64,000 nucleotides of DNA. It comes from Leucoraja ocellata. Its lineage: Eukaryota. The stretch is from assembly GCA_036785375.1 (NCBI GenBank), contig JAWMAR010000134.1, positions 6,014,001 to 6,078,000 on the forward strand, in the 5' to 3' direction. The notes beneath the pieces are model-generated. The model was given only the letters and a program-made list of their open reading frames with translations, made no database searches and was not told where the DNA came from. Every line of letters starts with the position of its first letter. Positions within the stretch are counted from its first letter, which is position 1. Of the stretch, positions 1,745 through 56,357 are shown one piece after another. The translations under genes and the position numbers were made by a program.

Positions 1745-2165
1745 ATCTTTCTTCGCAGCAGTCACTCAGAATAGAGAATGACTTGTTTCCGCACCGGTTT
1801 GTGAGTACTGAGGTGACTGGTGAGGCCAAAGTGGCGCAGTTTTTCCACAGATACCCGCCTGAAGAAGGATCTCGACCCGAAACGTCACGCATTCCTTCTC
1901 TCCAGAGATGCTGCCTGTCCCGCTGAGTTACTCCAGCTTTTTGTGTCTATCTTCGGTGTAAACCAGCATCTGCAGTTCCTTCTTACACAAGGTTCTTGCA
2001 CAGAAGGCAGATGGTCAATGGAATAAATGGTCAGTTGGCTTTTTTTAGTTGGTGTGATCCTTCAAATACCTACAAAGGGTTTCTGCGTGCACCTGATGCA
2101 CAGCCTCGAGGTTCTCAAAATCATCTCAAATGCTCCTCCACTCCGTAACAGTCACAGGCCAGAGG
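1745..2165 (-). mobile_element. RTE-like LINE/SINE 3' relic interrupted by a hammerhead element
   Basis: The start (cttcgcagcagtcactcagaatagagaatgact) resembles the RTE 3' end at 3060-3100 (catcggcagtcacttgaaatgagtatgact). Confidence 0.45.
1859..1989 (+). mobile_element. Penelope-like pLTR-derived short element with a minimal hammerhead core
   Basis: CTGAAGA-AGGATCTCGACCC-GAAA-CG-TC at 1859-1886, then the family body gatgctgcctgtcccgctgagttactccagc...ccagcatctgcagttccttcttacac. Confidence 0.8.
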
Positions 2166-3055
2166 TTCAGAGGTTGCCGCTTTGGATCATTGAAAACACG
2201 ACAGAGAAACAGACCATTTGCCCTACCATGTTTGTGCTGGTTGAAAAAGTGCTAACCAAACTAATCGCATATTCCAGCATTTGCTCCAGTGTCTGCAGGT
2301 TATGGTTCTTCAAATACATATTCAACAACTATTTTAAATGTGACAAGGGCTGTTTGTAGTGGCCATTTGCGTGTCATTAATGATGGCATGTGACTTTAAA
2401 TTTTAGACAGCCCGTTATATTGTGGGTGGGGTTTATGGCGTATTTTTGGGCATATTTGGAGCTATGTACCTTGTGCAGAAGCTTAGTTTTTAGTTTAGTT
2501 TGGAACCAGCATGGAGAAGGTTTACCCTTCGACCATGCGAAGTGTAACAGAGACACAAAGAGGTTTCTAATGTCTACAGCAATAAGCTGGAGTTTGATGA
2601 AGATTATAGTAAGGATGTTTTGTATATAGTAAGGAAGTAAGTATAGTTTGGATGTACCTTATTGTTTTCATCAAAAATAAAGAATGTATTCATCAAAAGA
2701 CTGTGTTTTTGAAGACTTATCTGTGAAGAAGCTCTGAAGGTCTCTGACGGTGAGCTTGCACGCGTACGGACATTCAACTTAACCATGCTGTCCATTTAGC
2801 GGCTAGAGGGAGTAATCTCTTGAACGATATAAAAATCTGCAGCTACAGCTATCTCTACTACTCAATCAAAGATTCATCCTCATTTCCCCTCTAATTATTT
2901 TACTAATCACTTTAATGATCAACCCTGGTTTTTGGACCACTGTGTTAAGGAAAATGAGTCATTCCAATTTACTAAATTAAGCTCCCTTAAAATGTATACA
3001 CTTCCAATACGACTCTACTGTATGGTTCAAGCATAACCTCCTGGCTCTTACATTC

Positions 3056-3765
3056 TCATCATCATCGGCAGTCACTTGAAATGAGTATGACTGTCCTCTC
3101 CACTCCATAGGGTCGTCTACTTGTGGGTCTGCAGATGTCTGTAGAGGCCAATCCGCGATCCACACACCTTGGTGCAACGTGGGCAGTGGAGACTGGCGGT
3201 GGTTGGTAGTCGTCGAGCCCCCTTCACTCTCTCATTACGGTACTGTCACTTTGTCTCTGCAATGCGGCGTAGTTCCATTTCCTGAAGTGCAGTTCCTTCC
3301 TGCATGGATTTTCTCCAGGAGCACCTGTCTAGTGCAATTTGCTCCCAGTTGTTTGATACGTTGTGCAATCTCTTCAGACTGTTCTTGATGTTGTCCTTGA
3401 AGCATTTCTTTGGCCCGCCGGAGGCTCGCCGACCTTCCTTCAATTGAAAGAACAGGATATGTTTAGGGACACGTGTGTTGGACATGCGGATGACATGGCC
3501 AGTCCATCGAAGTTGGTGCTGCATTATTGTGGTGGTGATGCCGGCCATGTTGGCTTCCTCCAAAACGCTGATGTTGGAGCGGTTGTCCTCCCAGCTGATC
3601 CTCAGAATCTTTCGTAAGGATCTTTGATGGTATTGTTCCAGGGCTCTCAGGAACCTGCTGTAGGTGGTCCATGACTCAGCTCCATACAACAGGGTGGAGA
3701 GAACAACGGCTCTGTAGACCAGCGGTTTTGTTTGAGCCTTTAGGTCTCGGTCTTCAAAGACTCCT
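3056..3765 (-). mobile_element. RTE-clade LINE 3' fragment (end of ORF plus 3' UTR)
   Basis: ORF 3246-3689 has LYGAESWT...LRKILRISWED...QLRWTGHVIRM...RVPKHIL, typical of the RTE C-terminus; (GAT)n tail at 3056-3066. Confidence 0.9.
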
Positions 3766-3917
3766 ATGCCTCAGCTAATGCAGGAAAGCGTCTCAAATCC
3801 TTTATCAATCACCTCATTACCTTGTCCTGTTAACTTTGAGGATCTCTTGTTATACATGCCAAGATCCTCCCCAACTACATCCATTTGGCAATTTTCAGGG
3901 CAACTGACCAAATCACC

Positions 3918-4015
3918 GGTAGATACAAAATGCTGGAGTAACTCAGCAGGACACGCAGCATCTCTGGAGAGAAAGAATGGGTGAATATTTCGGGTCGAGA
4001 CCCTTCTTCAGACTC
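3918..4015 (-). mobile_element. Hammerhead/Penelope-like short element
   Basis: Reverse complement AGT-CTGAAGAAGGGTCTCGACCCGAAA...; flanked by direct repeat accaaatcacc (3907-3917, 4016-4026). Confidence 0.8.
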
Positions 4016-4839
4016 ACCAAATCACCTCTACCGTACAGCGTTAAAATAAAAAAACCTCAGCTGAATAAATAGGAAATGTAGGGAACACTCAGTAGGCCAG
4101 GCTGCACCTGCGAAAAAGGAAGCAGGTAACTTTTTAGGTTTGAGAATCTTCATCAGAATACATGCTGAACCATGGACTTCCATCTGAAATGTTAACCAAC
4201 TTTTTATTTCATCTGCAGTTTAATACTTTCCACTCCGCTGTCAACCATTTGCTTATTTTGCAAACTTCATTATCATTTTTTTACTGACAGCTTTTTTTAA
4301 TCTTCTGCTTAATCAGTATTTCTCTTTCTCTTACCACAGATGCTGTCTGACGTGCTGAATATTTCTCACATTTTCTGTTTTTACATCAGCCAAATATCAG
4401 TCCATTAACACTTGCGTCAATTAACAGATTTGTTTTCCTGGTGCGAAGTTAAGTGTGAAGAAGTCTCTGTGAATGCTACGCATGGGAAAGAGACTCGAGG
4501 TTAACGTGGGCAACAACTATGATCTTTTAATAAATATTTAGCATGGAATAATCTCAAAGGACAGATTTACTTATTGTAAACTACAGGTTCTATCATGAGA
4601 TACAACTGTTTTTTTTTTACTTTTACTTTATTAATTTAATCTTCAATGCACTTTGTATTCAAGGAACAAAGTAAAAAGGATTTTGAATGTAAGAAACATT
4701 GCATTATTGCACCACTATTAGTAATTGCTAGTCACCCACATTTTAGAGTCTATGGGCACATAAACAGATAAAATCGGCAAATTTCGTACAGTTAAAGGAT
4801 TCAGATCTTGAATTCACCTTAAACTGCCCGACTTTTATA

Positions 4840-5105: not shown

Positions 5106-5174
5106 GGTATGGAATTGGAACCTAAAATCCACCTGTACATCAATGCTGTTAAGGGTCCTGCCATTGACAATATA

Positions 5175-5608
5175 AAGGTCAACCACCAATTTTCCAGCAA
5201 CTGGTGGTCCGGCACCATCTTTAATCCAAAGGAAATTACAAGTGAATACTTGAAATCCCCCCCACTGGAAATGCCCCCGAAAATATGGAGCCTAGGTCGG
5301 GTGATGCGGCCAATCTCAACCAATCTGGCTGGTGCGGTAAATGAGATAATACAGATAATGCCCGTCCCACTTAGGAAACCTGAACGGAAACCTCTGGAGA
5401 CTTTGCGCCCCACCCAAGGTTTCAGTGCGGTTACCGGAGGTTTTTGTCAGTCTCCCTACCTGCTTCCACTACCTGCAACCTCCGAGAATCGCACGGAAAC
5501 CTTGGGTGGGGCGCAAAGTCTCCAGAGGTTTCCGTTCAGGTTTCCTAAGTGGGACAGGGGCATAAAAGGCTCTGGAACCAAGGTGCTAGAAAATCGGCGG
5601 TGGGCCTA
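5175..5608. mobile_element. pogo/Tigger-like MITE hosting a nested Harbinger MITE
   Basis: Imperfect TIRs AAGGTCAACCACCAATTTTCCAGCA / TGCTAGAAAATCGGCGGTGGGCCTA, each flanked by TA (5173-74, 5609-10). Confidence 0.6.
5359..5562. mobile_element. PIF/Harbinger MITE (204 bp, near-palindromic)
   Basis: About 60-70 bp TIRs beginning gtcccacttaggaaacctgaacggaaacctctggagactttgcgccccacccaaggtttc; TAA duplication at 5356-58 and 5563-65. Confidence 0.88.
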
Positions 5609-5678: not shown

Positions 5679-5815
5679 GACACAAATGCTGGAGTAACTC
5701 AGCGGGTGAGGCAGCATCTCATGCGAGAAGGAATGAGCAATGTTTCAGGTCGAGACACTTCTTCAGACTGATGTCAGGGAGGCGGGCGGGACAAAGATAG
5801 AACGTAGGCGGAGAC
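5679..5815 (-). mobile_element. Hammerhead/Penelope-like short element
   Basis: gacacaaatgctggagtaactcagcggg...tttcaggtcgagacacttcttcagact; the core is mutated. Confidence 0.75.
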
Positions 5816-6547: not shown

Positions 6548-6684
6548 CTACAACCACTACAATCAATCTGAAGAAGGGCCCTGATCCACCTATCCTCACT
6601 TTCCCGAGATGCTGCCTGACCGGTTGAGTTACTCCAGCACTTTGGCTTTTTTTGCAAACCAGCTTCTGCAGTTCCTTGAGTTCT
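6548..6684 (+). mobile_element. Hammerhead/Penelope-like short element (GAAA segment deleted)
   Basis: ctgaagaagggccctgatcc...gagatgctgcctgaccggttgagttactccagcac...tctgcagttcc. Confidence 0.7.
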
Positions 6685-10955: not shown

Positions 10956-12700
10956 ATAAATCTGTTTTCAGAAAAAGATAAGGAAACTAATTTGGATTTT
11001 GGCACATAACACTGGTCCTCCTCTTTCAGTGCTTAAAACAAAGCAACCTCCCATTCATACAGCTAATATTATATCTCTAAATTATGCTTCCTAAATAATG
11101 TCAACTCAAAATTCATCAATGATCATTAAAGACAGCTGCCAGGATGTGAGAGGGGAAATTCAACTTCACTGAATAGAAACATGAATTTAAAACAAATCTG
11201 CTTTATGATAGGCTTTCTCCTCAAATATCATTAGCTGACATCCAATGAGGATTTTAGATTTCAAATATCTATGGTATTATGCTTTTGTTTCAGGTGCTTA
11301 ATTCAACACCACCTTGAAGAACTGTCACAAATAAGTTTCGCATTTCAACTTTTTTTCCCCGATAAAAAGCACCACTCGCTGACGGCTTTCTGCTCTAATC
11401 AAATTTACTAACTGTTTTTCTCTCCACCAAACCTGCTGTCCACTTTCCTGAAAATGTTGGTTTTAATTGAGGATTTAACTTTATTTTGCATATCAACTAA
11501 AGCCTTAGTAAAATAATTTAAATAGCCTGAAATGGCAGTGATGCCAAGTAAAAACATGAACGAAAATGAAAATAATAGCATAATTATCACTAAAAACTGC
11601 ATTTAAACTACATCAATCTTTGCCATTATTGTAGCTTCTTCTTCTTCCAGCACCAAGGGGATTCTGTCATCATTTCCTCTCTTTGATATGACATTTAAAC
11701 AGTCTATTAATAAAACAGTCGCATTAACGAAGTAGGCTAAAATGGCAGATCAATAATTTAACAAAATATAATCCTACAACAGTTTGTTTTGTCAGGCACA
11801 TATCACAAGATTCCCCAAAGTCATTATCTAAATATGAACAAGATTGGTTTACACTCCTGAGATTCCATTTATCATAAAACAGCCAGTACTGCAAGATCGA
11901 GGAGCCTGGGACCTCTACCCTGCCATCATCCATATGAAAGGTTGGATACAACAGATCTGACAATTAAATATATTGCGGTTTTGCCTCCGCCTTGCCATTT
12001 TTCTTGATGTCACTTTGATCAATAGAGAGAAAGGCAAGAAAGTATTAATTCAACAGCAAGCATCAGGAACAAAATGCTAAGCAAAATTACAAGCCATCAC
12101 ACAATGTTCTTATTTCCCGCACACACATAACTTAAAAGTAACATTGTGACATTGATGCCACAAGACCTTTGGAGGGCGAAAAGTCTGCTTGAAGCATTCA
12201 ACAAGTATTGCACCAAGAAGCCATTCAGTTGGACTAAATGGGGATAATGGGGTGGTGTGAATTGCATGTACACAATTTCAGGTGGTGCAGGCAAGAACAT
12301 CGATGTCAGGAAATGGTCCTGGTTTTGTTGTGTTCAGCTGCTTCATTAATGGCTGTCCTTGTAATTGGCCACAAGTCAGTTGAACAGCGAATAAATCCAC
12401 AGAATTCAAAACCTACAAGCAACATTCACACGTCCCTGTGATAATGGAAATCTTGGATGCAAAAGTGTAGGTTTTCCTTGTCCCCAAAGGTATAATCACC
12501 AGAAAGTCCTATCCAGATAACCAGAAGTTTAATTGGACCAGCAAAGCCAAAAAGCAAAAATATCATCAGATGCCAGATATCTGAAATAAAAACAATGCTG
12601 AGTTTATTCAATAGTTCAGACAACAATTATGGCGAGAAAAATCAGGAATGTTTCAGATTGGCAATCTTTCTTCAGAAATGGCCAGTTCTGATATAAATTC

Positions 12701-12825
12701 TCGGAGAAAACCTACATGGTCACGGGGAGAACGTACAAACAGTGGCCGTATTCGGGATCGAAGCCGGATCTCCGGCGTTGCAAGAGCTGTAAGGCAGCAA
12801 CTCTACCGCTGCGCCACCGTGCCGC
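12701..12825 (-). mobile_element. V-SINE (HE1-like) 5' part
   Basis: Reverse complement gives tRNA head ggcacggtggcgcagcggtagagttgctgccttacagc, a B-box-like ttcgatccc and the start of the V-core. Confidence 0.85.
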
Positions 12826-14744: not shown

Positions 14745-15728
14745 GTGAGGCACAGAGGTTGAGTTGCTACCTAACAACGCCAGAGACCCAGGTTTGATCC
14801 TGACTATGGGTTTTAGAAACATAGAAATTAGGTGCAGGAGTAGGCCATTCGGCCCTTCGAGCCTGCACCGCCATTCAACATGATCATGGCTGATCATCCA
14901 ACTCAGTATCCCGTACCTGCCTTCTCTCCATACCCCCTGATCCCCTTAGCCACAAGGGCCACATCTAACTCCCTCTTAAATATAGCCAATGAACTGGCCT
15001 CAACGACCCTCTGTGGCAGAGAGTTCCAGAGATTCACCACTCTCTGCGTGAAAAAAGTTCTTCTCATCTCGGTTTTAAAGGATTTCCCCTTTATCCTTAA
15101 GCTGTGACCCCTTGTCCTGGACTTCCCTAACATCGGGAACAATCTTCCTGCATCTAGCCTGTCCAACCCCTTAAGAATTTTGTAAGTTTCTATAAGATCC
15201 CCTCTCAATCTTCTAAATTCTAGAGAGTATAAACCAAGTCTATCCAGTCTTTCTTCATAAGACAGTCCTGACATCCCAGGAATCAGTCTGGTGAACCGTC
15301 TCTGCACTCCCTCTATGGCAATAATGTCCTTCCTCAGATTTGGAGACCAAAACTGTACGCAATACTCCAGGTGTGGTCTCACCAAGACCCTGTACAACTG
15401 CAGTAGAACCTCTCTGCTCCTATACTCAAATCCTTTTGCAATGAAAGCTAACATACCATTCGCTTTCTTTACTGCCTGCTGCACCTGCATGCCTACCTTC
15501 AATGACTGGTGTACCATGACACCCAGGTCTCGCTGTATCTCCCCCTTTCCCAATCGGCCACCATTTTGTCTTTATGGAGTTTGTATGTTTTCCCTGTAAC
15601 CGCTAGGTTTTCTCCGGATGCTCTTCCCACATTTTCTCCCACATTCCAAAGACTTGCAGGTCACTTCCATAAACCGTCCCTAGTGTGTACGATAGAACGA
15701 TAGATGTGCAAGTGATTGCTGGTCGACG
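14745..15728 (+). mobile_element. V-SINE split by a CR1 insertion
   Basis: Head at 14745-14811; V-core resumes at 15567 (tgtctttatggagtttgtatgttttccctg). Confidence 0.8.
14814..15566 (-). mobile_element. Young CR1 (HER1-like) LINE 3' fragment
   Basis: Open 216-aa ORF with RPHLEYCVQFWSP, RRLRGDLIETYKI and FFTQRVVNLWNSLP; tail tagaaacatagaaa. Confidence 0.95.
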
Positions 15729-15739
15729 ATCATATACTT

Positions 15740-19299: not shown

Positions 19300-19836
19300 G
19301 ACAGCAGATGTGAGGGAACTCAGCAAATCAGACCGCATCTATGGAGGCACAGGGGAGTCGTGTTTTGGATAGAGACCCTGCATCAGGACTGCCTATAAAA
19401 AGTAATGACTATGATTTCTATGAGCCTAAATTTTGAGTTGGTGATAGGAGAGCTTGAGGCAGGAGCACCAAGGTGAAAATGGGGAGATGGTGAAGGTTGC
19501 TGAGGTGAGGCAACGGGCTGGGCTGTGGTGTGGGAGACAGAAATGCTAAGTGGGAGAAAAAGTATCAAGCCCATCTCTTTCCGCAAATAATGGCTTCTCA
19601 TGCATTTCCCAGGGAGTCATGAGGGAAAGATCAGGTTGGCAAATCTTAGGTGCACATTAGATGATACACAGCTACTACATCATGACTACAGTTACCCAGG
19701 GTTGACTGTGGCCTAGTGATACAAATGAACAGCAGATACAGAAAACTAGAGGAGAAAAAATAAACTGCTGGTGGGTCGAGCAGCATCTATGGAGAAAAAG
19801 GTTGACGTTTTGGGTCAAGACCCTGCATCACGACTG
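19300..19836 (-). mobile_element. Two older hammerhead/Penelope-like short elements (about 19300-19391 and 19763-19836)
   Basis: gcatctatggag...tttggatagagaccctgcatcaggact and gacgttttgggtcaagaccctgcatcacgact are diverged variants. Confidence 0.6.
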
Positions 19837-20527
19837 TCGTTGAACAGTGTAGCTTTTTTCAAATAAATGAAAAGATTGTTCCTGATACCTTAAATAATAC
19901 TTGCACTGATGCCTGCATCTATTTTCATAAATCCCAAGCTTTAGCAGTCCCACAAATGTTCTCATTTAAACAGCATTCAAGCCAAAGTAATGAGAATATA
20001 TTCAACCAATTTGGTATGTGATGTGGTTCAGTTGTTTTAGAAAGGAAATAAATGAGTTAGTCCACATTTTCATGCGTTTTTGAACCAAATCCATCCTATT
20101 CTCTTTTCAAATCAAGACAAAACAGAATTCAAGACTTGCTTCAATACCTTCAAGCCCTGCAACAAGTCTGCACCATTTTAAACATCAATGAGTAACGCTT
20201 CCAAAGGCAAGAATCACGGCCAATTATTGTGATTACCATATCAATTATTTTTTGTTCAAATTGTAAGGCCAAAATCTGCACTGATGGTTAATTGGTCAGT
20301 TGTTAATGAATAAGGTTGTTTAAAAAGATATAACGTCCATACACCTGCATTTCCCAAAGCTACATGAGGGCAAAATAGGTAGTTAAGATTGGAATGATAA
20401 ACTTCAATTGAAATTGCAGCTCTTTTCACTGAGGTTAAGAGATCAGATATGAGGCCATAATCAAAAAGGAATTTCAACAGGTGAAATGGAAAAAAACTCA
20501 GTGGTTTGAGAATGAGGCAGTTAAGTG

Positions 20528-20803
20528 TAGGGGTAGAGTTGCTGCCTTACAGCACCAGAGTTCGATCCCGACTAGGGATGATGGTTGTACGGACTTTGTA
20601 CCTTATCTTTGTGATCATGTGGGTTTTCTCCGGGTGCTCCGATTTCCTCTCACCTTCCAAAGATGTGCAGGTTTGTAGGTTAATTGGCTTCTGTAAATTG
20701 ACCCTAGTGAGTAGGATAGAACTAGTGCATGGGTGATCATTGGTCAGAGAGGACTTGGTGGGCCAAATGGCCCGTTTCCATGCTGTATCTCTAAACTAAA
20801 AAC
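20528..20803 (+). mobile_element. V-SINE (HE1-like)
   Basis: ggtagagttgctgccttacagc, gttcgatccc, V-core gggttttctccgggtgctccgatttcctc, tail ctaaactaaa. Confidence 0.9.
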
Positions 20804-22729: not shown

Positions 22730-22972
22730 TCCTGGTGAGTTCCATTGTCTGTAACTCATTTTCACCTAGCCCACAACTAACAATGGCCAGTTTCATTTAT
22801 CATCGTTAATATTTTGCATATTTCATTTTTTTGTTCTGTGTTCCTCTAGATCACCATCTATAACTCTCATTTCCCTTTCCTCTCACGCTCAGTTTGAAGG
22901 GACTCGACACGAAACATCACCTATTCCTTTTCTCTAGAGATGCTGTCTGACCGGCTGAGTTACACCAGCTCC
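22730..22972 (+). mobile_element. Longer Penelope-like 3' fragment ending in a degenerate hammerhead pLTR, inserted among CR1 relics
   Basis: Pyrimidine-rich leader, then cagtttgaagggactcgacacgaaacatcacctattcc...gatgctgtctgaccggctgagttac. Confidence 0.65.
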
Positions 22973-22984
22973 TTCCTACACATT

Positions 22985-23770
22985 TCATCTACTACCACCC
23001 TCTGTTTCTCGCCTCTCAGCCAATTTTGTATACAAGTTGGTAGCTCGCTCTGGTTGCCATGTGATCTAACCTCCCGGACCAGCCCACCACACGGTACCTC
23101 CTCATAAGCTTTGCAAAAGTACATGTACTGCATTACCCTCGTCAACTTCTTGGTCAACTCTTCATAAATTCAAACAAATTGGAGAGACACAATTTCCCAC
23201 AAGATTTAATAAGAACCCGAGAGGTCAAATTTCCACACCGAGGACGGTGGGTATGTGGAACGAACTGCCAGAGGAGATAGTTGTGGCAGGTATTATAACA
23301 ACATTTAAAAGGCATTTTGACAGGTTCATGGAAAGGAACGTTTTAGAGAGATATGGGCCTAACGCCGGCAGATGGGACCATTGCAGATGGGGCATCTTGG
23401 GCAAGTTGGGGGGAAGGGCATTATGACTATGACTTTAAATCCATGATGACTATCCCATTCCAAATGAATATCAATCCTATCTCTCCGAATCCCCTCCAAT
23501 AACGATGCAAACACTGATGCAAGTCTGGTTTTGCAGATTTTTGGCTTGCAGCCTTTCTTAATATGCCATATTTCAGTCTGCTGGCACCTACTGTGACTAT
23601 AGTTGATGCAAGTATTTCTACTCTAGCAAATACTTGAACAGGTCTTGGGGATTTATCTTCCTTAATGCATTTTAAGACCTCCAACACCTCCTCTTCTGTC
23701 ATGTGGACTCTGCAAAATATTGCTCTGACCTTCTGCAAGTTCACTAGCGCCCGTATCTTTCCCCACAGTT
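22985..23770. mobile_element. Cluster of degraded CR1 fragments on both strands
   Basis: Minus-strand YMYFCKAYEEVP...NWLRGEKQRVVVD (RT) and EEEVLEVLKCIKEDKSP; plus-strand 3' end at 23205-23425. Confidence 0.75.
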
Positions 23771-28526: not shown

Positions 28527-28646
28527 GAGTCTGAAGAAGGGACCTGACCACAAATAGCCTTGGTCCAATGCCGCCTGACCCACTGAGTTCCACCAGCACT
28601 TCGCTTTTTGCACAAGATTCCAGCATCCGCAATGTTTTGCATCTCA
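28527..28646 (+). mobile_element. Hammerhead/Penelope-like short element
   Basis: gagtctgaagaagggacctgacc...ctgagttccaccagcac...ccagcatccgca; flanking repeat gatttatgtt (28517-26, 28647-56). Confidence 0.75.
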
Positions 28647-37783: not shown

Positions 37784-37937
37784 GTAGAATGGAACTGCAG
37801 ATGCTGATATATACCGAAAATAGACAAAGTGCTGGAGCAACTCAGCCAGCCAGGCAGCATCTCTGGAGGAAAAAATGGGTGACATTTCGGGTTGGGACCT
37901 TTCTTCAGATTTATACTTGTTCAGACTGTGTCTATCC
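37784..37937 (-). mobile_element. Hammerhead/Penelope-like element with a tiny inverted arm
   Basis: Full arm plus inverted tgtgtctatc; perfect 13-bp TSD tatttgaagaggt (37771-83, 37938-50). Confidence 0.85.
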
Positions 37938-41890: not shown

Positions 41891-42064
41891 GACCGGGCAA
41901 AGAGCAAACACATAAACGAGGGTTGATCAAAGTATCGATTTAAAGCTGGCATCAGAGAAAGCAATTAGTCTAATAAACGAAGGTTCTGTGGAGGATGAGT
42001 AGTGAAAGGGAGGCAGAGGTGGTGGAGGCATTGGTAAGGGGAAAGTGATTAGGGAAATTATTGT

Positions 42065-42284
42065 GTCGGAAGGAACAGCAGATGCTGGTTTAAACCGAAG
42101 ATAGACACAATGCTGGAGTTACTCAGCGGGATAGACAGCATCTCTGGAGAGAAGGAATGGGTGATGTTTCTGGTTGAGACCCTGATCTGTTTGAAGAGGG
42201 GTCTCGGCCCAGAATGTCACCTATTCCTTCTCTCCAAAGATGCTGCCTGTCCCGCTGAGTTACACTGGCATTTTGTGTCTATCG
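42065..42284. mobile_element. Inverted-pair hammerhead/Penelope-like element
   Basis: Two oppositely oriented arms; TSD agggaaattattgt / agggaaatgattgt (42051-64, 42285-98). Confidence 0.85.
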
Positions 42285-42775
42285 AGGGAAATGATTGTTA
42301 CTGGTTCATTAATTTCTCCCTATTTTAGAAATTTGACTGGCTGTATCATGTTGGTTGCGTCTGACTGTTCCGAAGGGAACAAGAGCTTTCCGCATCATTC
42401 CCACATAGTTGAGTCCCAGCTGTATATGCTGACTGACGTGCCATTGATGCAGAACTCCACATGGAATCCAACAACTGTGCTCTGTTTTACAGGGATTTCT
42501 CAGCATTATGCAAGGAAATTGGCTTCTCCAATCTTACATCTATGCAGCCTGGCTTAAGATCAGAAATCATATTCATTTGAATGGAGATTCTTGGTCTGGT
42601 TAAAGGAACATTTTTATTTTTATTTTTTGATTATTTTTTCATGATTTCAATGAGTTTTTGATTTGGTAAATTTTCCAAATTATTATAACAATCCTAATCC
42701 ATCAATATCATGCACAATTAACAACAATAAAGTAATGTCACGGCCTCAGTGTGGTTTCTTGTCTAACACTGTCAG

Positions 42776-43296
42776 TAGGGTTGCCAACTTTCTCACTCCC
42801 AAATAAGAGACAAAGGGTCAAAATAAGGGACAAATTCCCAACGGCAATTCATTGACTGACTCAGCCATGGCTGAGTGAATGATGAGTTGGCCCGGGTGCT
42901 GGACTGCACACAAAGCCCAGCCGGCGGGCCAGCTGAGGAGTTCTGGCCTGGGCACCAGACTTTGCGTGAGACCTCATGCGCAAAGCCCGGCACCCCATCC
43001 AACTCATGAACCAATGATCGGCCATGAGAAGGAGAGGTGGTAGTGTCAGCGGTAAACGAAGGTCCGAAATTCAGACAACTGGCCAGGCTGCCGACTGACG
43101 GGGCCACAGGCGAGGTGCTGCTGCTGCACTCCATGGGCTGCACTATGTCGGGATGGGTGCGGCGCTCCGACCCGACAGTCCCCTCGATCCGAGTAGTAGC
43201 AGTCAAATATGGGACAAGGGCAGTCCTGAATGGGACAAACCAATTTAGCCCAATATACAGGATGTCCCGACTGATACAGGACATTTGGCAACCCTA
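42776..43296. mobile_element. Non-autonomous hAT element, same family as 27493-28034
   Basis: TIRs tagggttgccaa / ttggcaacccta; TSD actgtcag / accgtctg; colinear with the first copy. Confidence 0.85.
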
Positions 43297-43994
43297 ACCG
43301 TCTGGGTTTTCTGCGGTGGCAACCCTAACTGCACCACCCGAGGCCTAATCAGACGCAAGGCCTTACTATAGCTCTCTATCCATCTCTAGGGTACAGAGAG
43401 TCAACTTGGTTATCCACGGCATCTGGCCCAGATTAGCGTATACAGGCAGCAATTGCAAGCCCTGGTCAGAATGATCTGGTCAAAATCTGCTCAAAATACT
43501 CCTCCTACTTTGGGGTTTTACAGCAGCAATGTTAAGCAGACTGTTTTAGAAATCAAACATCACCTAGAAATCCAAAATGCATAGCAAATAATATTTAATT
43601 ATTCTTGTCTTCCACCTTGGCAGTCTCTTCGGGTCTTTATGGAATGCTACTTTATTCACCTGTTTATCTGAGTCTATGCTTGCTTCAAAATGTATATCTA
43701 ATTTTGTCAGTTAGACGGTTGCATTCTTCATATTTGCTCACTGCCTTGCAGATTGCTTTAATTTATTTTTGCTTTCATTTCACATTTCTTGCATCCACAA
43801 TATTTTGTTTTCGTATTCTTAAGTATTAGCAGTAAATCTAGCTTTAAATATGATAAGGTGAAATGTTATCAAATCTCTCTCTGCAAGGTTACCCTACTAC
43901 AAATGCTGCTATACACGTGGCAATACAACTTTTCCAGGTCAACATCTTCCCAACAAAATAATTAAAAGGCATATTCTTGCCTCAGTTAAAGTTA

Positions 43995-44729
43995 TTGGTC
44001 TGTCCTACTTAGGCGACTTTTTAGGCGACTGCAGGAGACTATGCAGTCGCCACATGTTCGCAGGTGGTTGCCGGGGTGTCACCTTCATGGTCGTGAGGAG
44101 TGTTGAAAAATTAGCAGCAACCAGAATGAAGCCGCCATGGAGAGTAGCGAGAATTCTCGAGCCGTAGGTGGGTTGCCAGGAGATCGAAGTTTCTCATAGA
44201 TTCTCGTAAGTTGTAGCCGGTGCTGACCAGTGAATTTCATTGGCTCGTTGGGGAAAAAAAAAAAGTAAGGAACAGTAGTTTTCAGAAACAAGGATAACCG
44301 ACTGGTAATGTTAAATGTCCGCCGAGCTTCACAGCCGTGTATCTCTGGCTTCTTAAAAGTTGTCTCCACTCCTTCTCTCTCTTTCACCCCCCCCCCTCTC
44401 TCTCCCCCCTCTTTTAAAGGACTTAACGTAGTCGTCTTAATTACAGCGCTAACCTTCCTGTTCATCGCAGTGTTTGTCTGTATCACCTTGGCTTTGCACC
44501 GTGTGAATTTCACTCAGACAGCACCCCCCCCCCCCCCCGCTTGCCCTGTCCCCCACCTGCATAACAGGCTGGTGAAGGAAGCGATGTGTGCGCACGTGTG
44601 TGTGCGTGTGCGTGTGTGTGTGTTCCACTCTGACAGTCGCCGTTCCAGTTGCCGGTTTTTCAGGCGACTGCCGGCAACTCGACAGTCGCCAACATTCGCC
44701 TGAAAAATCGCCTAAGTGGGACAGGCCCA
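43995..44729. mobile_element. PIF/Harbinger MITE (735 bp)
   Basis: TIRs ttggtctgtcctacttaggcga / tcgcctaagtgggacaggccca; TTA TSD at 43992-94 and 44730-32. Confidence 0.85.
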
Positions 44730-45099: not shown

Positions 45100-45324
45100 A
45101 GACAAAAAGAAAAAGCTGGAGTAACCCAGCGGTTCAGACAGCATCTTTGGTGAAAAGGAATAGGTGACGTTTCGGGTCGCGACCCTTCTTCAGGTCTAAA
45201 GAATGGTCTCGACCTGAAACGTCACCTATTCCTTTTCTCCAGAGATGCTGTCTGACCTGCTGAGTTATTCAAGCTTTTTGTGCCTATCTTCGGTTTAAAC
45301 CAGCATCTGCAATTCCTTCCTAAG
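45100..45324. mobile_element. Inverted-pair hammerhead/Penelope-like element
   Basis: Minus arm has an intact core (45166-45193), plus arm has the tail; TSD cagctaagatcaa / cagttgagatcaa. Confidence 0.85.
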
Positions 45325-45505
45325 CAGTTGAGATCAACTGAGAAACACATCTTCTCCAAAAGCAGCTTACTTAGTCAAGGTCCTTTATATAACAGCCTAT
45401 GGATAAAGTACAATGAGCACTGACTGTTGCCCTGTAGCTTGAATATCAACCATATGAAGTGCTTTGAAAGGCTGATAATGGTCCACATCCGGGCCAGTCT
45501 CCACA

Positions 45506-45716
45506 ATAGACACAAAATGCTGGAGTAACTCAGCAGGACAGGCAGCATTTCTGGATAGAAGGAATGAGTGACATTTCGGGTCAAGACCCTTCTTCAGACT
45601 TGACCGAAACGTCGCCCATTCCTTCTATCCAGAGATGCTGACTGGCCCGCTGAGTTACTCCTGCATTTTGTGTTCATCTGCTGTGCATGCCAGCACCTGC
45701 AGTTCTTTCCCACACA
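45506..45716. mobile_element. Inverted-pair hammerhead/Penelope-like element
   Basis: Two opposed arms; degenerate flanking repeat ccagtctccacaata / ccagttcccaaaata. Confidence 0.82.
45567..45600 (-). ncRNA. Minimal type I hammerhead ribozyme motif
   Basis: AGT-CTGAAGA-A-GGGTC-TT-GACCC-GAAA-TG-TC-ACT: all core nucleotides present, stem II and a 3-bp stem I; activity untested. Confidence 0.6.
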
Positions 45717-46164
45717 CCAGTTCCCAAAATAATCCAGACCCCTTACAACAAAAATAGGTCTACAGACGACACCATCTTCCTTGCACCATCACATTCATCT
45801 CTGGATCACCTTGACTATAAGAACACCCACGCCAGGATGTTATTCAGCGCAGCCTTAAAACACCAACATTAAAATGCAACTGGTATCTGGACCCCTGACC
45901 AGCAAGTTTCAATCATTTGTCATCACATTTCCACCACACTAACCCTCAATACTCCTTGCACCTCAGGGTGTGCTCAGCCCCCTGCACTATTCCCTGTACA
46001 GCCATAACCGGGTAACAAATACAGTGCCAACTCAATCTTTAAGTCCGCTAATGATACCACCGCTGTGATCAACAATGATGAGACAAATTACAGGAAAGAA
46101 ATAGGGAGCCTTGTGTCCTGATGTCAGAACAACAACCTAGAGTCTCAGCATGTCAATAGTGATG

Positions 46165-46789: not shown

Positions 46790-47136
46790 TCTTAAAGAAG
46801 ACATTAACATTACCGGTCGGTTATCCTTGGTTCTGAAAACTACTGTTTACGTTTTTTTCCCCAATGAGCCAATGAAATTCACCGGTCTTCAGTGGCAAAA
46901 AACCTACGACAACCTATGACAACCTACGACCTCCTGGCAACCCACTACCACTGCACCTACGTCACGAGAATTCTCGCTACTCTCCATGGCGTCAAATGCT
47001 GGTCGACCAGAATGAAGAACCACTCACCACCATGCAGGCGACACCCCGGCAACCTTTGGCGAACATGTGGTGACCTTGTGGCGATCTTATAGTCTCCTGT
47101 AGTCGCCTAAAAAGTCGCATAAGTGGGGCAGGCCCA
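46790..47136. mobile_element. Partial Harbinger MITE, family of 43995-44729, opposite orientation
   Basis: Reverse-complement match to about 43995-44320; ends taagtggggcaggccca|taa. Confidence 0.8.
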
Positions 47137-48155
47137 TAAAGCGCTTAAATGTTTGTTTTATAATTACAGACTTCCCCAGACATCAAGTTCCTATATATCA
47201 AAAAAGAATTGTGCTACATCAATTCTAAGCAAGATATTTTGTATCATCAGCAAATTTAGTGGCTCTGACTTGTTCATTTGTCAAGGTTATTAATAAACGG
47301 CACAAGTCTTTGCATATTTCCCTATGGGAATCCCAATAGTCACGCCTACTCAACTCTAATAATTACCCTTTACAACCACATTCTGCTGCCTATTGTCAGG
47401 CCAATTTTCTGTTCAACTTACAGATTTTGCGCGAATCCCCAAATGAGCTTTCACTTCAGATATCTTTTGTAAGGGACCTTGTCAAATGAATTTTGAAAGT
47501 CAGGTTACTTGGTATCTGCTGATTTTCTAGCTGAATCATCTCTTTTAAAAAGAACAATTCTTTTCTTATAAACTCACATTAACTTTTGGTGACAGCAATC
47601 TAAAAATCTGCAAAATTTATTCTTTTGTAACAGGGAGACAATTTTCTAATGGCCGACATGAAACAATTTAATCAACTATCCAGAATTATCCTGTGCCAAA
47701 TTCCAAAAATTAATTCCCCACACTTCCTCATTTTTATCCATTCATGCTTATTCCCCCTTCCTCCATATCACATCTTCCATTAACACCTTGAAGAACAGCA
47801 ATCTATTGAATTATGTCAAGTGGAAATCTCAAAATTGTTAAGATCGTCAAAGCAAAACATATGGGCCTGCTCAAAAAAGAAAAATAGAGGGGAAAATTTA
47901 CAGCATCAGCCTTACATATTGTAGAGCAGATTTAGAAGTAGTAACAGAAGAGGGAGGCAAAAGACAGAAGATTGGCAAATAAACCACTCTGCCCAGTCAT
48001 GTGATCAAGCACACATGTAAGTTTCCATGCACAGAAAAATCAGAAGTTTAAATACGACATCACAGAAATTCATTCTTGTATTATTTTTCCTTTGCAACGA
48101 TACATGATTAAAAAAACAATAAGCTAACCCTAAAAAGACACAAAGTGCTAGAGTA

Positions 48156-48522
48156 GGGCAGCACAGTGGTAGTATTGCTGCCTTGTAGAGCCACAGACCC
48201 AGGTTCGATCCTGACTAAGGGTGCAGTCAGTACAGAGTTTCCCTGTGGGTTTTCTTGGGGTCCTCTGGATTCCTCCCACATTCCAAAGACGTGCAGCTTC
48301 CAGTCTGAAGAAGGGTCTCCACCCAAAACATCACCCATTCCTTCTCTCCAGAGATGCTGCCTGTTCAGCTGTTACTCCAGTAGTTTATGTCTATCTTCGG
48401 CATAAACCAGCATCTACTGTTCCTTCCTACAGTTTTGTAGGTTAATTGACTTCTGTAAATTGTCCCTAGTGTGTAGGACTAGAACTAGTGTCCGGTTGGG
48501 CTGAAAGGCCTGTTTCCACACT
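48156..48522 (+). mobile_element. V-SINE interrupted by a hammerhead element (about 48298-48431)
   Basis: The SINE reads ...ccaaagacgtgcag [cagtctgaagaagggtctccacccaaaacatcacc...ttccttcctac] agttttgtaggttaatt... Confidence 0.85.
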
Positions 48523-49377
48523 TGGTAAATGTTAAAAAATGCTGTGATGCTCAGGGGGTCAGGCAGCGTGTCTGGAGAACGTGGCTAGGTGACATTTCAG
48601 GTCAGAACGCTTTACCTCGTGTCTCCAAGCTAACCTTAACATTAGTTTGCTTCAATAATTCCCGTTACATTGCCTCTATTCTTTTGGCATCTCCTTTCAT
48701 TGGAAACAGATAGAAAAATAAGGTAGAAAATCAACCACTATTTGAAAATGACTCCCTGAAATTGAATGGTATGATAAGGTTCAAATACAGGACATCGATT
48801 CATTTAAATCAAACAAGGCAACCCACTGATGTGGGGAATTATAACCTGTCATGTTATATCCAAATGGCAACTATATTGATTGAACTGTTGCAGTCAAAGA
48901 GGCAGCCATCACAAAATAGAAGCATGAATATTGTGTGCAACCTTAATAGACATTTGAAGGTTACCACCTCGATGGTTTATGGAGTTCTCTGAGAATGTTA
49001 ATAAAAATTCAGCAATGAGATTGATAATGACAACTCAAGGAGTGAAGTGAATCATCATTAATGAATGATTGCAGGATTTCAAATCAGAAAGTGTTTTAGT
49101 AAACGACCAAAGGTAATCATGATTCTGAAATAAACACAGCTACATGATGACCTAAACTGGCATGAGATAAGAGAAATTATCCCAAAAAACATTATTAAAA
49201 AGCTTCACTAAGTAACAGCTGTAATTTGGGAAGTTCATTGCGTCATAAGAATACACAGTCTCAAAGGCTAATAAATAGGGAGCAACAAGTCGATAGTCAT
49301 CGTCTTTTAGTGATATCTTGAATGGCATAGATGGCCAGGGCATCAGGCAGAAACACAGGTTGTTACTATGATAATAA

Positions 49378-50215: not shown

Positions 50216-51041
50216 AGCCACTACCACAAGAAAACCTGCTTGACCTCAACAGATTTCCCAATAATTAAAATAAACCAAGTTTACTAAACTGGTGAATATT
50301 AGATTATTCTCAAGAGCACTCCCAGTGGAACTTATTATAAAGATAATAAGGATGAAGAATAATAGGTGGGGAAATAATTAGTAGACAAGAGTAGTACAAT
50401 ACCAAGACAGAAGATCAGACGCCCAAAAACATTAAATGTTTCCGTCCATAGTGCTTGCGTCATTTCGCAGAATGAACCAATCCAATTCTCTTCCCAGTCA
50501 TATTTTTCTAGTACTTTATCCAATTCCCCTTTATAAGTTCATTGAATCTGCATCAATAATTTCATTTCATATAACTGGAATGGTGCAAAACCAAACTTTA
50601 ACCTCTCTATTCTCCTACTTTTTGTAAGAGAATATCTATCACTGGTACCATTCTATAAATCTCATCTTTAGACTCTCTAGTGATTTGATAACTTTCCTGA
50701 AGTGTGGTGCTATAATCTGAACACTCCATCTGTGATCTAATTAACATCTTGGTAAATTTTAGCATAACTTTCTTGCGTCTATATCCAAAGCCTCAAAGTA
50801 TACCAATAAGATTAACCTATACCTCAACTTGCAAAACTATTTTGTCACATTGATAATTGTGGGAGGCACATTCCCCACAGATATTTTCTGCTTCGAAATC
50901 TAAGTAAATATGGCAATAAGTAATAAAAACCTCTCCTCATGCATCATTTTACCAGAATATATCATCATGCATCGTGCATGATCTCTTCAGGAAATGGAAG
51001 ATCGTACATTTCATTAAACAAACCAACAAGCCAACTAAAAT

Positions 51042-51203
51042 GTTTAAGAAAGAACTGCAGATGCTGGAAAAATCGAAGGTAGACAAAAATGCTGGAGAAA
51101 CTCAGCGGGTGAGGCAGCATCTATGGAGCAACGGAATAGGCGACGTTTCGGGTCGAATCCTTCTTCAGAAACCCGCTGAGTTTCTCCAGCATTTTTGTCT
51201 ACC
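51042..51203 (-). mobile_element. Hammerhead/Penelope-like element with a short inverted arm
   Basis: Minus-strand core CTGAAGAAGGATTCGACCCGAAACGTC; perfect 13-bp TSD agccaactaaaat (51029-41, 51204-16). Confidence 0.88.
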
Positions 51204-52559
51204 AGCCAACTAAAATTAGTACTTTTTGAGAAATAATAATAAAGCACAGTTTTAATTAAAATCTTTGCAATTCTCCAACAACACAACAAAATATCTCTTT
51301 TGATGCATAACTATAATAGAATGACCTTCTGAAACATGATCACTGCTAAATATACCACAGAACCATTTGATTAGTGACGTATCTGATATTCTCAGGCTGA
51401 TTGAGGCTTTGGTGTAATGTAATGAACTGTTCTTAGTCTTTTAACATATCTAAGCCACATTAAACAAATCTGTTGTGCCAGGACACTTAATGTGCTTTTG
51501 AAATGGATACGAGATTCTAAATAGCATAAATACAGCCCAATGTATACTGTAAATAGATCTACCGAATACTTAATTGAATGAGCTGACTTGACTCAGTGAA
51601 GTGGGTGCGTCAGTCAGTCTGGGATGCACTTTTTCTGTTGCTTGATAAATACCAATCAGGTCATAATAATAGGCTGCATCGGGAGAACATTGCTACAGCC
51701 AGCCAGAGTAGACCAGACTGGGTAATTCACCTGTCAGTCAACCACAGAAACCGAACAACTGATTTTTTTTCATGTAATTTATACCCTTCACCTCTACATT
51801 TCTTTGAAAACATTAACCTACTTTTACTGGCAAAAGCAGCTGTAATTTTGTTCACTCTCTTTAAATAGATTGATAGTTAGTCATGAACCTGACGTGTCTA
51901 CTGCATAATGGAAGAACACTGCGAGTCAAAACTCTCTGCCCCACCTTCAACTCACTGTCTGACAATGCTGACAATAAATGTTCTGATATGATGATAATAA
52001 GTCAGAGAACATCCGAAAAGTGGAAAAACGAAAAACTGGAAAGAGTAGCAGTCTCCAGATAATTAAAGATCTGCAGATCTTTAAAATTACATAGACCATG
52101 CAGTATAGAAAGAAGCCATTCAGCTAACCAATCTATTCTCCCATTAATGCTCCTTTCAAGAATTTGTCCTAATCAGATAAAATGACCTTGGGTAGCCTTC
52201 TGGAGGTCTTGTCAGGCTTTCTGCAAACAATTCAAGAATCATTGATTTTACATTCTGACAATGAACAAAGTAATTTCTCCCAAATCCCCTATTTTATTTC
52301 TTATAACCTGATGTAGAAGCCTGCAGTTTTGCTCTTCTCCAAAGACTGAAGCATTCTTTACTTCCATCAATATCCAATAGATCACCCTTCAGCTTGCATC
52401 ATTCAATAAAACGACAAACTGACATTAGACATGCAAAGACACAATACGGGTCAAACATTATTCAAACCAAAAAATGTCATACTCAAAGCAGTACAAATGT
52501 TATAGTCCTTTACTGAAAGGGATGCTTAGTCTGGTATTATTCTTGAGGTCATCAATTAA

Positions 52560-53050
52560 GGGACGCACAGTGGTAGAGTTGCTGCCTTACAGCACCAGAG
52601 TGTTTAAGAAGGAACTGCAGATGCTGGAATCGAAGGTAGACAAAAGTGCTGGAGAAACTCAGCGGGTGCAGCAGCATCCATGGAGCGAAGGAAATAGGCA
52701 ACGTTTCGGGACGAAACCCGAATCTGAAGAAGAGTCTGAAGAAGGGTTTTGGCCCGAAACGTTGCCTGTTTCCTTCGCTCCATAGATGCTGCCGCACCCG
52801 CTGAGTTTCTCCAGCACTTTTGTTTACTTATAGCACCAGAGACCGGGTTCGATCCGTACTACGGGTGCTGTCTGTACAGAGTTTGCACATTCTTCCTGTG
52901 ACCATGTACTCTCTACAAAGACATGCAGGTTTATAGTTTAATCAGCTTCCGTAAATTGTCCCTAATGTGTAGGATAGAACTAGTGTCCGGGTGATCATTG
53001 GTCAAGGCAGACTCAGTGGATGGCCTGTTTCCACAGTGTATCTCTAAATA
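52560..53050 (+). mobile_element. V-SINE interrupted by a hammerhead element
   Basis: Head at 52560-52600; resumes at 52842 with accgggttcgatcc. Confidence 0.85.
52601..52826. mobile_element. Inverted-pair hammerhead/Penelope-like element
   Basis: Plus-strand core CTGAAGA-AGGGTTTTGGCCC-GAAA-CG-TT (52736-52763); 15-bp TSD cttacagcaccagag / cttatagcaccagag. Confidence 0.88.
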
Positions 53051-54248: not shown

Positions 54249-54483
54249 NNNNNNNNNNNNNNNNNNNNNNNNNNNNNNNNNNNNNNNNNNNNNNNNNNNN
54301 NNNNNNNNNNNNNNNNNNNNNNNNNNNNNNNNNNNNNNNNNNNNNNNNNNNNNNNNNNNNNNNNNNNNNNNNNNNNNNNNNNNNNNNNNNNNNNNNNNNN
54401 NNNNNNNNNNNNNNNNNNNNNNNNNNNNNNNNNNNNNNNNNNNNNNNNNNNNNNNNNNNNNNNNNNNNNNNNNNNNNNNNNNN
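54249..54483. other. Assembly gap
   Basis: Run of N. Confidence 1.
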
Positions 54484-54944
54484 TACTAGTATTAGTAGTA
54501 CACCTGCCCTATGCACAACAACTTTTTTAAAATAATTATTCCATCCATCCTCTCTCGCTTCTCCGAAATGCGAATGTCACTTGTTTAAATTTGTGCATTT
54601 ATCCTCAGTTTATTACATTTGTTGATTTAATGTCAACTTTTTTTAATTTAAACGCTGTTCCGGTCATTTTTTATTTTATAATTTAATGTAATATGTATTT
54701 GATGTGTAAATTTCACACCGGTAAATTCTGAATCAAATAATGATTTAATATTAGACTCATAGAGTGATACAGTGTGGAAACAGGCCCTATGGCCCAACTT
54801 GCCCACACCAGCCAACATGTCCCAGCTACACTACGCCCTACTCCGATGGATCTTCTGCCGGTGCTCGCAGGTCCCAATCCCTTCTTTAAAAAAAACCCAC
54901 GATACCAGAAAAATATTTTAATGTTTTATTTCTCTGGTATAAAA

Positions 54945-55261
54945 TGGTGACACAGCAGTAGAGTTGCTGCCTTACAGCGAATGCAGCAGCAGAGACCCAG
55001 GTTCGATCCCGACTACGGGTGCTGTCTGTACAGAGTTTATAAGTTTTCCCCGTGACCTGCGTGGGGTTTCTCCGAGATCTTCGGTTTTCTCCCGCACTCC
55101 AAAGATGTACAGGTTTGTAGGTTAATTGGCTTGGTAAATGTAAAAATTGTCCCTAATGGGTATAGGATAGTGTTAATATGCGGGGATCGCTGGTCGGCAT
55201 GGACCCGGTGGGTCGAAGGGCCTGTTTCCTCGCTGTATCTCTAAACGAAACTAAACTAAAA
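54945..55261 (+). mobile_element. Near full-length V-SINE (HE1-like)
   Basis: tRNA head with B-box ggttcgatccc, V-core, CR1-like end gaagggcctgtttcc and (CTAAA)n tail. Confidence 0.92.
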
Positions 55262-55909
55262 GAACACAACCATACATTGTTATCCATGAGGTCTTATCCT
55301 TAATGGTTATCTCTGATATTTCCTTGGTGCCATGACCTGGCACGTACTAATCAAAAAGGCAACTGCAATGCTGGCCTTAAGGTCTCAAGGACTGAAGCAG
55401 TTGATAATGTGGAGTGGGTAGAAGGTGAAACGGGGCAAGCTACAAGTAATACTGCAGCTATTCAAAGCAAATTACAGGTTGTGTGTTTAGTTCTAGGCAT
55501 CACAACCTATGATAGAGACATTGCCCTTGGAGTGTTCATTGTAAATTTCCCAGATTAATGTTGAAACAATGGTTAAAATAACAAACAAAAAAAAGCTTGA
55601 ATTCTCTAGAATGTATCTGTTATGGAATGTCTTAATTGACACAAAGAACTGATAGTGTACATGGAAATAAACTATTTCTGCAGCTCTGGAGTCTAGGACT
55701 AAGAGACTTAGTTATAAAAAAATGATGTCAAGTCTTTCAGGAGTGAAATTATGGAATTGTTTTTACAGTCACACTCACTGAGATTACAAGATTATATTGC
55801 AAACAGCCATTGATGTTGCTTAATGTCAAATCTAAGCAATAGACTTGTTTAACTATTAAGGCACATGTACATGGAGTAAGATCGGATTAAATGGCTCAAG
55901 GGACTAAAC

Positions 55910-56357
55910 CAGGAGTCAGCAACCAACGGTCCCCAGGCTGAATGCGCCCCGTAACCCGAAATCATCCGGCCCACAGGCGGATTTTTTCCCCCTTATTCAT
56001 CAGGCCCGCCGAGCGCCCCGAGCAGCGGCCGAGCTCTGTCTGTACCGCATCCTCCGCGAAGCCGCCGGCATGGCCGCGCACCTTCTGTGAACACGTTTAA
56101 GAACGAACTGCAGGTGCTGGAAAAATCGAAGGTAGACAAAAATGCTGGAGAAACTCAGCGGGTGACACATGCAAGGATTGCATGAGGCTACATCACCCCC
56201 TGAGTTTCCCTAACATTTTTGTCTACCTTCTGTGAACATTTGATTTGATGCCCGCCTTCCGGGGCAGGGTCAATGTGTTCATGTGATAGATGTGGCCCGC
56301 CATCCGCTCACAGACATGCGTCCTGGCCCATATGCAGAACAAGGTTGTCGACCCCTG
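55910..56357. mobile_element. hAT-Charlie-like MITE
   Basis: TIRs caggagtcagcaacc / ggttgtcgacccctg; perfect 8-bp TSD gactaaac (55902-09, 56358-65). Confidence 0.9.
56094..56224. mobile_element. Penelope-like inverted-arm element lacking the hammerhead core, nested in the MITE
   Basis: Both arm ends are present around an unrelated spacer; flanking repeat accttctgtgaaca (56080-93, 56225-38). Confidence 0.8.

Follow-up and report, generated by a model that had tools for sequence, protein, structure and literature searches.

A stretch of 64,000 nucleotides from the Leucoraja ocellata genome (contig JAWMAR010000134.1, positions 6,014,001 to 6,078,000; hereafter the window, whose own coordinates are used throughout) contains a dispersed family of short repeats built around a minimal hammerhead ribozyme motif. 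The repeat unit is very probably the 3' part of a pseudo-long terminal repeat (pLTR), and its loci are pLTR-end stubs of an endonuclease-bearing Penelope-like retrotransposon (Penelope-like element, PLE). Most copies are short and decayed, and most of their arms, as single copies of the unit are called here, are broken as ribozymes. The value of the family lies in what it can tell about the origin of the inverted ends and one-sided tail of PLEs, and about the role of the ribozyme.

Anatomy of the repeat family and its hammerhead motif

The window was searched with a profile trained on 13 arms, with significance set at E ≤ 0.001. The search returned 35 matches at E ≤ 10, 27 of them significant (including the 13 training arms), at 21 loci that together cover 2817 bp, or 4.4% of the window. 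The same search of the reversed window gave no match, and a pattern for the ribozyme region allowing up to three mismatches was matched nine times in the window and not once in any of 100 shuffles. The dispersed family is confirmed as real, and all 16 sites assigned to one family by an earlier reading of this DNA (the original prediction) fall on members. Copies of 100-230 bp had been described; the members are real, but those of 200-230 bp turned out to be inverted pairs of a unit of ~90-135 bp.

With position 1 set at C3 of the hammerhead core, the unit comprises the hammerhead region (positions 1-28), a body of ~60 nt and an optional tail of ~38 nt that reaches to about position 131 (39 nt as delimited in the arm at 1859). 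Three lineages were distinguished, of which A and B are young and C is older. Arms are often broken at CpG sites: in 11 family-A arms, 22/86 CpG cells differ compared to 74/831 other cells. A strongly conserved block of the body can pair with the tail in an 8-bp helix (1906-1913 with 1964-1971, and likewise in other tail arms), in which 95% of the cells are paired with no compensatory change; base pairing is also possible between the tail end and the ribozyme core. Two other identities were rejected. The unit is not a tRNA-derived short interspersed element (SINE), as it gave no tRNA call for a tRNA-like head, has no simple-repeat 3' end and showed no self-alignment to the fragments in the window that resemble long interspersed elements (LINEs). 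Coding constraint on a conserved ATG block was dismissed because, by eye, the columns that vary correspond to the first and second positions of codons.

At seven loci (37784, 42065, 45100, 45506, 51042, 52601 and 56094) two arms stand head to head in inverted orientation. In every one of these pairs one arm reaches the tail end and its partner stops ~38 nt earlier, an outcome with a probability of at most 0.008 (0.5^7) under independent choice of tail or no tail. The centers differ from pair to pair. Deletions and short 5'-end duplications are seen at the junctions, and one junction holds a foreign spacer of 29 nt. Variants common to both arms number five at 45100, one at 45506 and none at 42065 (the family-A pairs), and the arms of 52601 differ from each other at 5 positions and from those of 51042 at 10. 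The arms of one pair come from one lineage in two of the three family-A pairs and in 52601. Direct pLTRs from partial tandems were not found in the 64-kb window. RNA read through the pairs at 42065-42284, 45100-45330, 45506-45717 and 52601-52826 is predicted to fold into ~90-bp hairpins of -124 to -162 kcal/mol, which would bury the ribozyme and could be mistaken for microRNA precursors; weak matches to microRNA models are indeed obtained.

Target-site duplications of 12-16 bp, with at most one mismatch and a score of at least 10, flank 7/20 loci. Among mismatched-flank controls, 1/380 reached this score, being a stretch compared with itself, and the best other control scored 9. Additionally, empty-site paralogues of a SINE-like repeat confirmed the insertion boundaries at 52601 and 48298. 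The duplications are 62% AT, compared to ~60% for the window, and thus show no AT bias. Altogether, the family displays inverted 5'-truncated pairs, a one-sided tail of 30-40 bp and duplications of variable length; for PLEs, the described signature is a 5'-truncated inverted copy whose tail of 30-40 bp is confined to one end (PMC8557442, PMC3846280).

In the young lineages, the majority sequence consists of a 2-bp stem I, CUGAAGA, an extra A, a 4-bp stem II with a G-C closing pair, GAAA, CG, U, and C or U. The majority of lineages A and B keeps the conserved core (CUGANGA, GAAA, UH) in type I order, and the extra nucleotide between A9 and G10.1, the G10.1-C11.1 pair and the palindromic 15.2-16.2 are all present. 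This majority fits the consensus for PLE minimal hammerheads given in Fig. S3 of PMC4209133, with a palindrome replacing helix III, and as far as sequence can tell, the putative motif is the minimal type I hammerhead of the PLE kind that had been proposed. The original prediction had listed 56094 among the hammerhead-bearing copies, but the ribozyme region is absent there, and only one arm of the family satisfies a strict descriptor. This descriptor of minimal hammerheads, built without family sequence, found one strict site in the window (52736, plus strand), two with wobble in the palindrome and four at its loosest setting, all of them in the family, and gave a single match in 300 order-1 Markov windows. 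The sole strict arm (52734..52765, plus strand) has a 2-bp stem I, a core from 52736, a 4-bp stem II and an ACGU palindrome, with a predicted cut after 52763.

Conservation was assessed in an alignment of 23 arms (the 27 significant arms minus five without ribozyme region, plus a sub-threshold arm at 63491). Core columns outside CpG were conserved at 0.89 and the body at 0.78 (base-stratified p = 0.002; p = 0.0016 with one arm per locus), in arms that are not independent and with the signal carried by eight old, hard-to-align arms; the difference was absent within 11 family-A arms (p = 0.20) and within 15 A and B arms (p = 0.20). We read this pattern as source elements under selection whose copies decay neutrally. 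On visual inspection, the stem I of lineage C is kept in a shifted register, and a U-A pair is replaced by U-G in lineage B. RNAalifold, applied to nine tail arms, did not recover the hammerhead stems and detected no covariation in the body-tail helix. The Rfam hammerhead models, a check suggested by the original prediction, gave no match; five matches were obtained at E ≤ 1, all below gathering scores, to four microRNA models and one plastid model, and these are located on inverted pairs.

Source RNA, insertion and alternative explanations

None of the 27 arms begins at the predicted cut (position 29), and two eroded old arms align from positions 33 and 35. Because no arm starts at the cleavage site, the copies came from uncleaved RNA, and cleaved RNA was rejected as their source. 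The 5' ends were read by eye and considered fixed where defined by one of three features (duplication, junction or empty site), as in 18 arms. Ten of these 18 lie at -4 to +1, the right arm of 42065 lies at approximately -6 to -13, and the remaining seven are further in (~+8, +9, +13, +60 in three arms, and +84); the arms at 5679, 6548 and 22890, which have no fixed boundary, extend further upstream. The bases upstream of the ribozyme are TCAGT, which fits the RNA polymerase II initiator. An initiator-like TCACT has been described in a rotifer pLTR (PMC3846280). Position -4 is a G in three arms (3918, 28527 and the right arm of 52601) and a C in at least three other fixed arms. An extra G marks the copied cap in full-length L1 insertions (PMC11702581), and the three G residues may likewise be cap-derived, which is a lead and not proof. 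At 5679 and 22890 a CAG follows a pyrimidine tract; it could be a splice acceptor that gives rise to the 5' clustering, and the intron of Drosophila virilis Penelope is described as ending at helix I (PMC4209133). No shared upstream exon behind the 5' ends was seen in the window.

The anatomy, the duplications, the two classes of 3' ends, the 5' clustering and the decay pattern are observed here; the protein partner, RNA cleavage, two-ended priming and the transcription start are inferred. The reverse transcriptase (RT)/GIY-YIG protein of the element, probably as a dimer, would cut both target strands 12-16 bp apart and thereby generate the duplication. Uncleaved element RNA would serve as template, with reverse transcription primed at two fixed positions, one at the end of the tail and one ~38 nt inside it, which would account for the two 3' end classes. 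Extension of one target end would leave a single arm, and extension of both, one per site, would produce short cDNAs that join head to head into a pair with and without tail. Copying would usually stop just 5' of the ribozyme, most simply if the transcript starts there, with the clustering reflecting either the RNA 5' end or a strong stop. After insertion the copies would decay neutrally, the ribozyme motif being maintained solely in successive source elements. In vitro work on the anole PLE (Frangieh et al. 2024, PMC11167929) showed cutting and extension of both strands by its protein, two start sites bounding the tail and the use of uncleaved RNA. Among the literature matches listed, two-ended priming is not described for PLE pairs.

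Several observations weigh against a PLE origin with a hammerhead in its pLTR. Thirteen of 20 loci, including the pairs at 45100 and 45506, have no duplication above the null. A Pfam scan of 146 frames of at least 75 aa, with shorter or broken frames outside the scan, revealed no PLE RT or GIY-YIG domain, and none of 12 proteins that match the translated unit is a full-length PLE protein. Stem I, stem II and the body-tail helix show no two-sided change in 18 of the 27 arms, which leaves the stem I and stem II covariation that had been named as a check without an instance, and pairing in the 18 arms (86.6%) does not exceed that in shuffles (88.0%). Folding z-scores were not significant for any of 8 segments, including the ribozyme fold, and the double hammerhead of an intact arm reaches -7.1 kcal/mol compared to a co-fold minimum of -20.6. 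Stem I has just 2-3 bp in the young lineages, and both lineage-C copies carry a C at core position A9; lineage C may represent a natural variant of the core, or else a dead lineage that nevertheless moved. Finally, the GIY-YIG signature considered below was chosen after the sequence was seen.

Some of these points are expected. The lack of a PLE open reading frame (ORF) in the window is what stubs would show, and covariation is poorly detectable because the copies are decaying descendants of few sources. Poor folding support does not refute the motif, since published minimal hammerheads cleave weakly or solely with protein (PMC4209133, PMC11167929), and 2-bp stems I occur in the published PLE list in Drosophila virilis, Culex and Oikopleura (PMC4209133). 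Mobilization by a PLE-type machinery, in line with the original prediction of a Penelope-like RT/GIY-YIG protein, is supported by the inverted pairs, the one-sided tail and the 12-16 bp duplications, but no PLE ORF was found in the window.

In addition to one sub-cutoff match, the scan of the 146 frames identified one RVT_1 domain and one Tc1-type transposase. The translated unit matched three proteins in a first library and 12 in a second. All are unnamed, are 54-175 aa long and seem to be spurious translations of copies of this repeat located elsewhere. In the protein P0004, the residues after the tail, in the +2 frame, fit 8/9 positions of what we take to be the C-terminal signature of GIY-YIG; an equal fit occurs in 5/300 shuffles, and the other 12 proteins reach at most 7. 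The support that this lends to a partial-tandem PLE is weak and came after the fact. Searches with the C-terminal portion of P0004 found no relative among longer proteins and P0004 alone at near length, Atlas matches at 0.85 were uninformative, and two scans of bacterial and archaeal genomes gave no match each.

The same insertion chemistry could have acted on a different source RNA, that of a self-propagating non-autonomous PLE (SINE-like, ~135 nt, with an internal promoter) moved in trans, which was the view of the original prediction. The accumulation of 10/18 fixed 5' ends at -4 to +1, the high density of the family (21 loci, 4.4% of the window) and the presence of several lineages would suit such an element, as would the internal promoter of D. 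virilis Penelope (PMC2377424) and the report that pLTRs alone can be moved in trans (PMC3846280). However, the arms at 5679, 6548 and 22890, and perhaps the right arm of 42065, extend further 5'; junctions differ among pairs, indicating that none of the pairs was copied whole; and priming in the first pLTR of an ordinary autonomous transcript would give the same sharp end. We regard a separate parasite as possible rather than likely, and the data are explained no less well by abortive products of autonomous PLE RNA. A doubtful but specific extension of the stub reading is that the copies are 'strong-stop' products recording the PLE insertion reaction, with a capped start and ordered two-ended priming. 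In this joint proposal, the mRNA would start at the initiator-like TCAGT that forms the 5' strand of stem I, so that a cut would remove the cap ~31 nt in; the dimer would, as a rule and not at random, use the tail start to prime one of the target ends and the inner start to prime its counterpart; the cap would be copied as the extra G at 3918, 28527 and the right arm of 52601; and the tail would pair back onto the body over 8 bp to mark the inner start. If it were true, thousands of genomic pairs would make the formation of PLE tails and inverted ends testable by counting. A non-long-terminal-repeat (non-LTR) retrozyme, whose tandem repeats would be cut by dimeric hammerheads into circular RNAs and then reinserted, is very improbable. 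It would share the type I hammerhead and the non-coding copies of 100-230 bp, and a 2026 preprint (bioRxiv 10.64898/2026.07.22.740005) reports retrozymes derived from pLTRs in one chondrichthyan. Yet the window holds no tandem repeat with a period above 32 bp, the pairs are inverted and so never place two ribozymes on the same strand, the cut site is not the start of any arm, and the hammerhead is minimal, with neither a canonical helix I (6 bp, loop contacts) nor a canonical helix III. The retrozyme-type label attached earlier to the family fails, since neither tandem arrays nor a canonical hammerhead is present.

For the formation of the pairs, the main rival to two-ended priming is fold-back synthesis, in which one cDNA would prime itself or synthesis would proceed on antisense RNA (proposed in PMC3846280). 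It would explain why the arms of a pair share lineage variants, and palindromic junctions are described for rotifer PLEs (PMC3846280), but the junction deletions, the 5'-end duplications and the 29-nt foreign spacer look like end joining and both-strand extension was seen in vitro for the anole PLE (PMC11167929); on balance fold-back synthesis appears unlikely. Hardly credible is a miniature inverted-repeat transposable element (MITE) or other palindromic DNA element with an incidental hammerhead match, even though the pairs resemble ~200-bp palindromes, true palindromic elements occur in the window, and neither an Rfam hammerhead match nor covariation was found. It was rejected on the duplication length, which varies from 12 to 16 bp, the asymmetric ends, the centers that differ in every pair and the single arms that carry duplications of their own; the descriptor null of just 1 in 300 windows also speaks against it.

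Individual loci and neighboring repeats

Among the single arms, 1859..1989 (plus strand) runs from ribozyme core to tail end (tail ~1951-1989), with one stem II mismatch, no 5' strand of stem I and a candidate 13-bp duplication with 2 mismatches (1839-1851 / 1992-2004). Older tail arms on the plus strand lie at 6548..6680, with GAAA and the cleavage site deleted, and at 28527..28646, where the G at -4 corresponds to a C in the other copy of the duplication (28517-28528 / 28647-28658). The tail arm at 48298..48432 (plus) sits inside a SINE-like repeat as a filled site relative to unfilled paralogues, and the arm at 22860..22985 (plus) lacks an internal segment ahead of the tail end and is extended on its 5' side by pyrimidine-rich sequence, with the boundary set by eye. 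Arms without tail occur on the minus strand at 3918..4011, flanked by 3903-3917 / 4012-4026 and again with G at -4 and C in the other duplication copy, and at 5679..5815, whose 5' boundary is not fixed and whose ~50 nt pyrimidine-rich stretch 5' of the ribozyme is read as further pLTR. The two older lineage C arms are also on the minus strand (19300..19392, with the longer, register-shifted stem I and the C at A9, and 19721..19837, with the same C). Old decayed members are the minus-strand arms at 4064..4156 (profile E 7e-6), 12565..12676 (a tail arm; 1e-5) and 48533..48612 (4e-10), a plus-strand body fragment at 4330..4382 (2e-5) that is possibly the partner of the 4064 arm, and a very old, probably inverted pair at 62000..62150 (left arm E 1e-4; right arm E 2.4, not significant).

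The inverted pair at 37784..37937 joins a tail arm (minus) to an ~11-nt stub of a tail-less arm, with the 5' end of the arm locally duplicated, and is flanked by 37771-37783 / 37938-37950. At 42065..42284 a tail arm (minus) and a tail-less arm (plus) lie between duplications 42051-42064 / 42285-42298. The pairs at 45100..45330 and 45506..45717 both have the tail-less arm on the minus and the tail arm on the plus strand; the former shows a 7-bp duplication that is inside the null range, and for the latter, whose tail-less arm has a near-intact ribozyme (C3 at 45597), a duplication was not established. Lineage B provides 51042..51203, with a tail arm (minus), a short tail-less arm (plus) and duplications 51029-51041 / 51204-51216, and 52601..52826, located inside a SINE-like repeat, with a 9-nt duplication of the core at the junction and target duplications 52586-52600 / 52827-52841. 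It also provides 56094..56224, flanked by an exact 14-bp duplication (56080-56093 / 56225-56238), in which both arms end ~60 nt into the unit without ribozyme and enclose the 29-nt foreign spacer. This spacer (56165-56193) shares 13 exact bases, and a few more beyond, with 58459-58478, a stretch between two LINE-like fragments; the likeness may reflect a template jump, or chance.

Other repeats also occur in the window. MITE-like palindromic elements with similar termini lie at 5358-5563 and 36364-36694, and a SINE-like family of ~300 bp at 12699-12818, 20529-20800, 25666-25912, 36700-36927, 48161-48500, 52569-53048 and 54946-55250, two of its copies being interrupted by Penelope stubs. LINE fragments at 14817-15571 and 56580-59154, which are presumably CR1-like, include an RVT_1 frame (56580-57290) and two 615-bp pieces that are 94% identical. 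A Tc1-type transposon remnant (59998-61512) has ~220-bp inverted ends with 91% identity. The minus-strand open frames 3246-3770 and 40642-41964 gave no Pfam match; we take them to resemble C-terminal parts of LINE proteins, RTE-like and L1-like, respectively. Further repeat pairs are 27493-28034 / 42776-43296 and 43992-44319 / 46800-47139, and assembly gaps are located at 26051-26192 and 54249-54483.

Comparison with known systems

Dozens of animals are known to carry minimal hammerheads in their PLE ends, and one more host lineage fills a gap: Table S1 and Fig. S3 of PMC4209133 (Cervera and de la Pena 2014) include no cartilaginous fish, and thousands of such motifs per genome are reported there for coelacanth and Xenopus. 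Penelope itself is reported from whale shark (PMC8455134). No paper on the ribozyme of this family in cartilaginous fish was found among the matches listed in a literature search that had Dfam and Repbase outside its scope, and a repeat this common is probably present in a repeat library. The motif resembles the pLTR hammerheads of PMC4209133 in its CUGANGAH core, the extra base before stem II, the G-C closing pair, the palindrome in place of helix III and the short helix I, as well as in the occurrence of many single dispersed copies, some of them close together on opposite strands; its 4-bp stem II and 2-3 bp stem I are at the short end of the published range.

Non-LTR retrozymes (PMC7229834; bioRxiv 10.64898/2026.07.22.740005) are likewise short non-coding repeats with a type I hammerhead and a relation to PLE ends. 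However, they are head-to-tail tandems with canonical hammerheads and circular RNAs (PMC7229834), and two consecutive tandem units are the criterion used in the preprint, whereas the copies described here are single or inverted. Poseidon PAc of Anolis likewise has its ribozyme ~90-130 nt 5' of a pair of RT start sites bounding a tail, and it uses uncleaved RNA. The PAc ORF starts inside the ribozyme with an AUG that the young-lineage core lacks, and PAc prefers AT-rich targets, in contrast to the unbiased duplications found here.

The family shares with complex PLE insertions (PMC8557442, PMC3846280) the head-to-head inverted copy, the one-sided tail of 30-40 bp and duplications of ~8-16 bp, and differs from them in that nearly all insertions consist of the pLTR end alone, with 5' ends concentrated at a single point. 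The tail asymmetry of 7/7 pairs and the sharp, possibly capped 5' end are what remains of interest, and a family this dense and short, with clean duplications, is well suited to a genome-wide test of two-ended priming and of the capped 5' end.

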